Part shown: in pieces, positions 11,886 through 13,082 of the stretch
Position numbering within the stretch: position 1 is the stretch's first letter
Layout of the letters: each line of letters opens with the position of its first letter
NCBI RefSeq assembly: GCF_003334815.1
Contig: NZ_QOWO01000005.1
Strand: one strand, 5' to 3'
Source: Escherichia coli
GTDB lineage: Bacteria; Pseudomonadota; Gammaproteobacteria; Enterobacterales; Enterobacteriaceae
DNA length: 64,000 bases
The notes under the pieces: model-generated
What the model saw: the letters and a program-made list of their open reading frames with translations, nothing else
Database searches by the model: none
What the model was told of the DNA's origin: nothing
Translations under genes and position numbers: made by a program

Positions 11886-13082
11886 ATGAAAACCTGGATA
11901 TTTATCTGTATGTCCATAGCAATGTTGCTATGGTTTTTAAGTACGCTAAGACGTAAACCCAGTCAAAAGAAAGGCTGTATTGACGCCATTATACCTGCGT
12001 ATAACGAAGGCCCGTGTCTGGCGCAGTCACTGGATAATCTACTGCGTAACCCTTATTTTTGCCGGGTAATTTGCGTTAACGACGGCTCCACGGACAATAC
12101 CGAAGCGGTCATGGCGGAAGTCAAACGCAAATGGGGCGACCGCTTTGTTGCCGTCACGCAAAAAAATACCGGTAAAGGTGGTGCGCTGATGAATGGCCTC
12201 AATTACGCCACCTGCGACCAGGTTTTTTTAAGTGATGCCGACACCTATGTTCCGCCCGATCAAGACGGAATGGGCTATATGCTGGCAGAAATTGAGCGCG
12301 GTGCCGATGCCGTAGGCGGCATTCCCTCTACTGCGTTGAAAGGCGCGGGTCTGTTACCGCACATCCGCGCGACCGTAAAGTTGCCGATGATTGTTATGAA
12401 GCGCACGCTACAGCAGCTCCTGGGTGGCGCACCGTTTATTATCAGCGGTGCCTGCGGGATGTTCCGTACTGATGTATTGCGTAAGTTCGGTTTCTCGGAT
12501 CGTACTAAAGTCGAAGACCTTGATCTCACCTGGACATTGGTGGCAAACGGCTACCGTATTCGGCAGGCGAATCGCTGCATCGTATACCCACAGGAATGCA
12601 ACAGCCCGCGTGAGGAGTGGCGTCGCTGGCGGCGTTGGATTGTGGGATACGCGGTCTGTATGCGCCTGCATAAAAGACTTTTATTTAGCCGCTTCGGTAT
12701 CTTCAGTATATTTCCTATGCTGTTGGTTGTGCTTTATGGCGTTGGGATTTATCTCACTACCTGGTTTAATGAATTCATCACCACCGGGCCGCATGGAGTG
12801 GTGTTGGCAATGTTTCCGCTTATCTGGGTCGGCGTAGTTTGTGTTATTGGTGCTTTTAGCGCCTGGTTTCATCGTTGCTGGTTGTTGGTGCCTTTAGCGC
12901 CGCTTTCCGTTGTGTATGTATTATTAGCTTATGCCATCTGGATTATTTATGGACTTATTGCCTTTTTTACTGGACGCGAACCTCAGCGCGACAAACCCAC
13001 CCGCTATTCCGCACTGGTGGAAGCGTCAACCGCTTATTCCCAACCTTCTGTCACAGGAACTGAAAAACTATCTGAAGCTTAA
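11886..13082 (+). CDS. yaiP: Family-2 glycosyltransferase with C-terminal transmembrane segments
   Basis: 398 aa; IIPAYNEG...VNDGSTDNT and DAD (LSDADTYV) motifs of GT2; hydrophobic C-terminal third. Confidence 0.85.
   Translation: MKTWIFICMSIAMLLWFLSTLRRKPSQKKGCIDAIIPAYNEGPCLAQSLDNLLRNPYFCRVICVNDGSTDNTEAVMAEVKRKWGDRFVAVTQKNTGKGGALMNGLNYATCDQVFLSDADTYVPPDQDGMGYMLAEIERGADAVGGIPSTALKGAGLLPHIRATVKLPMIVMKRTLQQLLGGAPFIISGACGMFRTDVLRKFGFSDRTKVEDLDLTWTLVANGYRIRQANRCIVYPQECNSPREEWRRWRRWIVGYAVCMRLHKRLLFSRFGIFSIFPMLLVVLYGVGIYLTTWFNEFITTGPHGVVLAMFPLIWVGVVCVIGAFSAWFHRCWLLVPLAPLSVVYVLLAYAIWIIYGLIAFFTGREPQRDKPTRYSALVEASTAYSQPSVTGTEKLSEA

Follow-up and report, generated by a model that had tools for sequence, protein, structure and literature searches.

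Probable translation of Escherichia coli yaiX from an ATG codon located 134 nt inside yaiP

On the basis of the comparisons presented here, the acetyltransferase gene yaiX of Escherichia coli is probably translated from the ATG at position 12949, which would give a protein of 230 amino acid residues and a genuine out-of-frame overlap of 134 nt with the upstream gene, yaiP. Positions are those of the window, namely the entire stretch of 64,000 nucleotides that was analyzed (contig NZ_QOWO01000005.1 of RefSeq assembly GCF_003334815.1). The region of interest corresponds to E. coli tauA / yaiS-yaiP-yaiX-yaiO / frmRAB and is 99.9% identical to that of strain K-12 MG1655 over positions 10600-14600. 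The IS2A element that splits yaiX in K-12 is absent from the window, and thus the gene is intact. The overlapping start is already known, being recorded in the curated K-12 reference annotation. What is added here is a comparative case against the RefSeq PGAP gene models, a dual-coding stretch of at least 68 nt, and, more modestly, a route by which an overlap of 14 nt would have grown to 134 nt.

Results

Arrangement of the yaiP/yaiX junction

Listed below are the features of the junction.

11886..13082, + strand: yaiP, a family-2 glycosyltransferase related to PgaC/IcaA, 398 aa (from the list of open reading frames)
12949..13641, + strand: yaiX, a left-handed β-helix (hexapeptide) acetyltransferase; proposed true coding sequence, 230 aa from ATG 12949
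12949..13082, + strand: proposed dual-coding overlap of 134 nt, with yaiX in the +1 frame relative to yaiP
12949..13014, + strand: segment A; in the YaiX frame, the 21 new N-terminal residues and His28, which occupies the position of the ancestral start (MDLLPFLLDANLSATNPPAIPH); in the yaiP frame, the conserved YaiP tail ending ...YGLIAFFTGREPQRDKPTRY
13015..13082, + strand: segment B, the minimum certain overlap of 68 nt, with a conserved YaiX N-terminal segment (WWKRQPLIPNLLSQELKNYLKL) over a poorly conserved yaiP tail extension
13015..13020, + strand: codons of the invariant Trp-Trp pair, which marks the ancestral N-terminus, 68 nt inside yaiP
13023..13079, + strand: enterobacterial-type 3' extension of yaiP, the last 19 codons, past the ancestral stop position

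The yaiP frame continues without an earlier stop to the TAA at 13080-13082. The hexapeptide-acyltransferase frame, which is +1 relative to that of yaiP, runs open from 12928 until its stop codon at 13639-13641. Its canonical start candidates are ATG 12931, ATG 12949, and TTG 12958, and the next one, GTG 13201, already lies within the β-helix. The initial annotation had placed the two ATG codons 152 and 134 nt inside yaiP, and both the coordinates and the lengths agree with the open reading frames and the yaiP stop. Its further statement that no ATG, GTG, or TTG follows before the hexapeptide repeats was wrong by one codon, the in-frame TTG at 12958, which leaves its conclusion unchanged. The codon that directly precedes the Trp-Trp pair in the window is CAC (His, 13012-13014), whereas the outgroup loci described below have a start codon at this position.

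The YaiX protein and its gene cassette

Residues 62-219 of YaiX align to residues 241-398 of PDB entries 5z09 and 2ggo (E = 8e-23), and the Pfam matches on record are PF00132 (Hexapep), PF25087, and PF25084, with the names GMPPB_C and LbH_EIF2B also on record. In the AF2 model, the β-helix core consists of regular short strands with pLDDT values above 95, such that both the profile and the predicted fold are those of a hexapeptide β-helix. When YaiX was considered as a GlmU, no nucleotidyltransferase domain was found, only the C-terminal part of the profile was matched, and all scores fell below the NCBIfam cut-offs (129 versus 292 bits, for example). The predicted protein is thus a member of the hexapeptide acyltransferase superfamily and not a GlmU. 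YaiP, in turn, matches NCBIfam model TIGR03937 (PgaC_IcaA) at 1e-28, which is below the cut-off.

The neighbors of yaiX are conserved and encode a PIG-L deacetylase, a PgaC-like synthase, and the YaiO outer-membrane barrel, the four genes together forming a cassette whose context suggests a role in the modification of a secreted polysaccharide. Across enterobacterial-type lineages the β-helix core of YaiX is 75-95% conserved, and many of its residues are invariant, which indicates that yaiX is under purifying selection. Removal of the IS2 element from K-12 yaiX gives rise to a clumping phenotype that also needs yaiP (PMC3531124). The gene is thus functional in its native context. A clone encoding a 236-aa form is likewise active when overexpressed (PMC13058169).

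Reading frame under selection

The Trp-Trp pair (W23 and W24 of the 230-aa protein) is invariant in all 69 of the 69 aligned homologues. Distant homologues of ~206 aa, which share ~50% identity with YaiX, begin with M/V-W-W, and these residues align to H28-W29-W30 of the 236-aa open reading frame. Substitutions were compared among seven gap-free enterobacterial-type lineages, namely Escherichia (two species), Citrobacter (three loci), Enterobacter, and Salmonella. The third codon position of yaiP is the most variable one upstream of the overlap (0.513), and it remains so in 12949-13014 (0.325). In 13015-13059, by contrast, the peak is at the third codon position of yaiX (0.549 versus 0.25-0.28 elsewhere). 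The numbers of substitutions that are silent in one frame only are as follows.

yaiP-only control: silent in yaiX only, 45; silent in yaiP only, 108
Segment A (12949-13014): silent in yaiX only, 7; silent in yaiP only, 19
13015-13059: silent in yaiX only, 21; silent in yaiP only, 8

As can be seen, the ratio for 13015-13059 is reversed, and it differs both from that of the yaiP-only control (Fisher p = 3e-5) and from that of segment A (p = 0.001). The Trp-Trp pair is thus the exact point at which selection passes from the yaiP frame to the yaiX frame. Given that the yaiX frame is selected from this pair onward, the start of yaiX must lie upstream of 13015. Judged from these sequence comparisons, the overlap is more than a chance open reading frame, and at least 68 nt are genuinely dual-coding whichever start codon is used, because yaiP is read to 13082 without an earlier stop and purifying selection acts on the yaiX frame from 13015 onward. 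A comparison of the overlap across species for conservation of both frames had been proposed in the initial annotation, and it does reveal selection on the yaiX frame for the 68 nt downstream of 13015; in 12949-13014 none was seen.

Indeed, segment A could not be distinguished from the yaiP-only control (Fisher p = 1.0), and no constraint at the protein level was seen on the 21-residue extension. What speaks for the extension is thus limited to three points: a start is required, the ATG is conserved, and the frame is open. The synonymous variation of yaiP is lower in segment A than overall (0.325 versus 0.513), but as a sign of dual coding this was rejected, the effect being inconsistent between pairs and limited to 22 codons. 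The X-only row of this comparison was set aside, as it is distorted by indels in L007 and L024. The AF2 model of YaiX has a mean pLDDT of 87.9, with values of ~45 for residues 1-20 and of 77-88 for residues 21-50. The low model confidence for the 21 added N-terminal residues is consistent with disorder.

Conservation of ATG 12949

The enterobacterial-type set comprises 14 loci from about 10 separate lineages: Escherichia, Citrobacter, Superficieibacter, Enterobacter, several Salmonella types, and an Ignatzschineria / E. coli-plasmid type. An ATG is found at -63, -66, or -69 from the Trp-Trp pair, with the frame open from there to Trp-Trp, in all 14 loci, and in several of them a stop lies just 1-4 codons upstream of this conserved ATG. 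The yaiP frame is open through the overlap in every one. In the window the yaiP codons TAT GGA (Tyr-Gly) supply the ATG, and across the lineages it comes from Tyr/His-Gly (xAT Gxx).

The synonymous codons of yaiP were resampled with local codon usage, lineage by lineage, for 10 lineages. The probability of an ATG together with an open frame ranges from 0.21 to 0.75 per lineage, and the product over the 10 lineages is 7e-5, a value that is optimistic in that the lineages are not fully independent. For the ATG alone the product is 0.03; this is weakly informative, since the local usage of Tyr/His codons favors T at the third position. Note that the choice of Leu codon at the next-but-one yaiP codon matters, in that four of the six would put a stop into the yaiX frame.

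The Shine-Dalgarno (SD) element of ATG 12949 is a GGA with a 6-nt spacer (-3.1 kcal/mol), which is weak and about average for the region. SD strength was discarded as a means of discriminating between starts, every candidate being weak. The RNA surrounding this ATG is less stably folded than shuffled controls (z = +1.4).

Outgroup loci and a history of the overlap

Eight non-enterobacterial loci served as outgroups. They derive from Pseudomonas, Acinetobacter, α- and other proteobacterial MAGs, and metagenome contigs, and all share the same PIG-L / GT2 / LbH / YaiO cassette. In each of them (L010, L011, L012, L016, L017, L018, L029, and L030) the acetyltransferase has an ATG or GTG directly before Trp-Trp, at -3, and the glycosyltransferase ends 11 nt after the first Trp base, which results in an overlap of exactly 14 nt in 8/8 loci. 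The stretch equivalent to 12949-13011 contains yaiX-frame stops in three of the eight and is therefore untranslated in those three. In the enterobacterial-type loci, on the other hand, the -3 start is missing in 14/14 and the GT2 tail is longer, with ends at +17, +32, +68, +77, or +83. The E. coli end at +68 corresponds to 19 added codons. The ancestral stop arises from WWx(E/D) when the preceding codon ends in T; E. coli has WWKR. Some enterobacterial-type loci keep an intermediate ATG upstream of Trp-Trp, at -6 in L019 and L022, at -9 in L024, and at -12 in L008, where E. coli has ATT (13006).

These observations can be accommodated by the following history. Ancestrally, the acetyltransferase would have begun Met-Trp-Trp and shared an ordinary 14-nt overlap with the glycosyltransferase. 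In the enterobacterial-type lineage the ancestral stop would have been lost, such that yaiP came to read 57 nt further into yaiX. The ancestral start would also have been lost (it is now CAC, His), and initiation would have moved to the next usable ATG, 63 nt upstream. The three lengths, 14 + 57 + 63, sum to 134 nt. The 21 added YaiX residues would then be a passenger peptide unconstrained in sequence, the frame needing only to stay open and to keep its ATG.

Translational coupling of yaiX to yaiP, also raised in the initial annotation, was assessed by the distance from start to stop, for which overlaps of 1, 4, or 8 nt, and up to a few tens, would be expected. It holds up for the outgroups, where the ancestral 14-nt overlap, found outside the enterobacterial-type lineages, fits such coupling. 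It fails for E. coli, where the start precedes the stop by 134 nt. Measurements on gene pairs of E. coli show that reinitiation depends steeply on distance and falls off within a few tens of nucleotides (PMC10666635), and for this reason termination-reinitiation coupling is unlikely at 134 nt. We infer that ribosomes would initiate de novo at 12949, by way of the weak GGA in a poorly structured stretch, and not by reinitiation after the termination of yaiP.

Other candidate starts

The remaining candidates that were considered are the following.

12931..12933, + strand: ATG, start of the 236-aa form of KEGG genomes, present only in Escherichia (the window and L004)
12958..12960, + strand: TTG, 9 nt after ATG 12949 and 125 nt inside yaiP, absent in L027 and L019-L022
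13060..13062, + strand: CTG, the RefSeq PGAP start (WP_024183734.1, 193 aa), 15 codons after the invariant Trp-Trp pair
13080..13084, + strand: TAATG, in which the yaiP stop overlaps an ATG in the third frame; no yaiX start

The TAATG at 13080-13084 was rejected as a coupled start in that its ATG is in the third frame and opens only 12 codons, and the motif is missing in L004, L005, and L006. The same grounds led to the dismissal of a -1 slip out of this 12-codon frame on the A-run at 13093-13097.

It is unlikely that translation of yaiX begins near the yaiP stop, at an internal or non-canonical codon, whether CTG 13060, CTG 13048, or a codon near 13080 as the initial annotation had suggested. 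The protein would then be 193-197 aa long, the overlap would shrink to 23-35 nt, and the open frame upstream would be coincidental. Such a start would remove the Trp-Trp pair that is invariant in 69 homologues and, with CTG 13060, the 15 codons with an excess of yaiX-silent substitutions (21 versus 8, p = 3e-5 against the control). A main start near 13080 would delete Trp-Trp together with 15 to 22 yaiX-constrained codons, and the outgroup proteins begin M-W-W. In its favor, PGAP annotates CTG 13060 or 13048 consistently in thousands of genomes, and the β-helix catalytic core begins after 13060. Moreover, the codon equivalent to 13060 is NTG in 7/7 ungapped enterobacterial-type lineages (CTG, CTG, GTG, GTG, GTG, ATG, and TTG) with AGGA just upstream, and this regularity leaves room for CTG 13060 as a minor internal start. 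The G of the NTG, however, doubles as the opening base of a yaiP tail codon for Glu or Asp. The AGGA is 2 nt away from CTG 13060, too close for normal spacing, and pairing is absent within the -20 to -4 window (+1.5 kcal/mol). CTG is, in addition, a poor initiator in E. coli. Also rather unlikely is a different start upstream of Trp-Trp, of which there are three kinds. ATG 12931 (236 aa, 152-nt overlap) is the first in-frame ATG after a stop, and the 236-aa clone was active on overexpression (PMC13058169), but the codon is confined to Escherichia and has no SD pairing (+0.9 kcal/mol). Its position is occupied by Thr in Citrobacter, and in the other lineages a stop precedes the -66 ATG by 1-4 codons; ATG 12931 is probably not the yaiX start. 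TTG 12958 occurs in most lineages, but it lies 15 nt from the GGA, is missing in the loci given above, and is forced as a by-product of the yaiP Ile-Ala codons ATT GCC. A near-cognate codon such as ATT 13006 gains some appeal from the relatives in which the aligned codon is ATG (L024, L019, L022, and L008), but its equivalent in L007, L025, and L026 is ATA, a very poor initiator, and a near-cognate start is thus not conserved.

Finally, YaiX might lack a start of its own in E. coli, being produced either by +1 ribosomal frameshifting somewhere in 12928-13080 (for example at GCC TTT TTT ACT, 12960-12971), which would give a YaiP-YaiX fusion, or not at all, by a decaying gene that has lost its start. 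We regard this as extremely improbable. The +1 position of yaiX relative to yaiP would suit a frameshift, and the yaiX frame has no stop anywhere in the overlap, which also contains the T6 run. That run is broken in L004 and L024, however; a search of 12700-13300 returned no Rfam frameshift element or other family even at E values up to 1, and no GT2-LbH fusion protein occurs among the 120 best homologues. As for decay, the ancestral start codon is indeed gone and the cassette is often struck by IS elements. Against it stand the conservation of the β-helix core (75-95%) and the phenotype of the repaired K-12 gene (PMC3531124). A start at ATG 12949 remains the preferred reading, and the suggestion in the initial annotation of an unusually long overlap is borne out by the selected yaiX frame from 13015, the conserved ATG, and the same start in curated K-12.

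Database models of yaiX

A search of 5,426 complete E. coli genomes found the sequence in 4,914, and in 4,464 of these the match covers at least 80% of the 851-base query. Several gene models are on record.

CTG 13060, 193 aa: RefSeq PGAP model (WP_024183734.1)
Equivalent of 13048, 197 aa: PGAP model in another clade
GTG start, 174 aa: model in some strains (P0017)
Equivalent of ATG 12949, 230 aa: another gene caller, 1737-member cluster P0001
ATG 12931, 236 aa: KEGG genomes; the 236-aa form is mentioned in PMC13058169

In the curated K-12 record (NC_000913.3), yaiX' (b4579) starts at 382872 and yaiP ends at 382739, an overlap of 134 nt, and the start reads ATG GAC TTA TTG, identical to 12949 in the window. 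In several thousand E. coli genomes, ~37 N-terminal residues, among them the invariant Trp-Trp pair, are probably missing from the PGAP model. With respect to the literature on yaiX, no paper mapping the YaiX start was found, nor was any N-terminal peptide or initiation-site profiling.

Discussion

With start calls of 236, 230, 193 or 197, and 174 aa in circulation, the comparative evidence supports that of 230 aa. The choice matters for anyone cloning or expressing yaiX, a gene recently linked to clumping and, on overexpression, to drug-resistance phenotypes. The locus also provides a clean and datable example of a routine 14-nt overlap that would have grown to 134 nt through the loss of one stop and one start. 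Beyond this evolutionary example, the matter is one of annotation and entails no new mechanism. [quoted passage not shown] The new N-terminal peptide of YaiX or the tail of YaiP might then have a role, such as tethering the acetyltransferase to the membrane-embedded synthase, or the ratio of the two proteins might be fixed by unusual initiation or a +1 frameshift.

Comparison with known systems

The closest structural counterparts of YaiX are the archaeal-type GlmU proteins such as ST0452 (PDB 2ggo and 5z09), whose C-terminal left-handed β-helix acetyltransferase domain it matches. It differs from them in having no nucleotidyltransferase domain and in carrying the N-terminal W-W segment in place of the inter-domain linker. 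At the level of the genes, K-12 MG1655 yaiX' (b4579) and yaiP (b0363) have the same sequence, start codon, and 134-nt overlap as the window. The K-12 gene, however, is split by IS2A and flagged as a pseudogene, and thus there is no overlap between two coding sequences there, whereas yaiX in the window is intact. No published justification for the curated K-12 start was found in the literature.

The ancestral 14-nt overlap in the outgroups resembles the short overlaps, of the ATGA or TAATG type, that are known to support coupling (PMC10666635), and there too the genes belong to one conserved four-gene cassette. The E. coli gene departs from this pattern in that its start is 134 nt upstream of the stop and the TAATG at 13080 is in the wrong frame.

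In the survey of Palleja et al. (2008), no co-directional overlap longer than 60 nt was accepted as real, longer ones being misannotations, and the longest real case was holD-rimI with 32-56 nt (PMC2478687). The yaiP/yaiX junction shares with the overlaps described there (PMC2478687) that it is co-directional and out of frame, that it is conserved across enterobacterial genera, and that its length is genus-specific. It exceeds the 60-nt limit of that study (PMC2478687), with at least 68 nt certain and 134 nt likely. With the downstream gene lengthened at its 5' end and the upstream gene at its 3' end, the junction corresponds to their class v, which was treated there as error (PMC2478687).

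According to Fonseca et al. (2013), overlaps arise by the loss and replacement of start or stop codons (PMC3887535). The proposed history of yaiP/yaiX follows this route, with a stop lost in the 3' elongation of yaiP and a start lost and replaced upstream in the 5' elongation of yaiX. It differs from the cases in that study (PMC3887535) in that both events would have taken place at a single junction, from an existing overlap of 14 nt, and in either order.

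The yaiX/yaiO junction and the codon at 13060-13062

The end of yaiX and the beginning of yaiO are arranged as follows.

13639-13645, yaiX stop codon TAA (13639-13641), one base, and then the yaiO start codon ATG at 13643

A strong AGGAG motif (-7.4 kcal/mol) lies inside the end of yaiX. The junction is an ordinary, tightly packed one, and it differs from that between yaiP and yaiX.

The codon at 13060-13062, which the NCBI automatic annotation (PGAP) takes as the yaiX start, is NTG in all seven of the lineages that align without gaps (the window, L004-L007, L024, and L027), the equivalents being CTG, CTG, GTG, GTG, GTG, ATG, and TTG. 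The third positions of the yaiX codons in this region are free to vary, and yet the NTG is kept. In the tail of yaiP, a Glu/Asp codon begins with the G of this triplet. A secondary internal start for yaiX at this position is possible.

Conservation, probable horizontal spread, and disruption of the cassette

The order PIG-L deacetylase, GT2 synthase, LbH acetyltransferase, and YaiO barrel is kept in the window (11205-14416) and in the compared loci L005-L030. Besides Salmonella, Enterobacter, and Citrobacter, the genome of an uncultured member of the Pseudomonadota (L029) and an unassigned contig from a metagenome (L030) carry the four-gene cassette. Fimbrial genes adjoin it in several of the Salmonella and Enterobacter loci. 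Citrobacter braakii ATCC 51113 carries two diverged copies in one genome (L007 and L005), whose proteins are 80% and 64% identical to that of the window, and an E. coli copy (L025), labeled as plasmid-borne by one source, groups with that from an Ignatzschineria metagenome-assembled genome (L009). Both the two C. braakii copies and this grouping suggest that the cassette has spread horizontally.

Two genes occupy the yaiS region, the second of which lies antisense within the 3' part of the first.

11205-11876, + strand, yaiS, an intact open reading frame of 223 residues encoding a PIG-L deacetylase
about 11742-11861, - strand, ykiC (b4731), a small protein gene of 39 residues

RefSeq PGAP labels yaiS as "incomplete, missing C-terminus" in L001 and L002, whose records are identical to the window, despite the open reading frame. 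Insertion sequences have entered the cassette repeatedly, namely IS1 in the yaiP-yaiX-yaiO stretch of strain SCEC020023 (NZ_CP025950.3, the region matched by the 12850-13700 query), an IS3-family element within or adjoining yaiS in strain M2 (L002, 1-880), and IS2A inside yaiX of K-12 (L028, 3261-4591), which suggests that the cassette is often inactivated. The codon at 11760-11762 of yaiS is CAG (Gln 186) in the window versus TAG in K-12 MG1655, and the annotated 185-residue K-12 YaiS is therefore a nonsense-truncated form.
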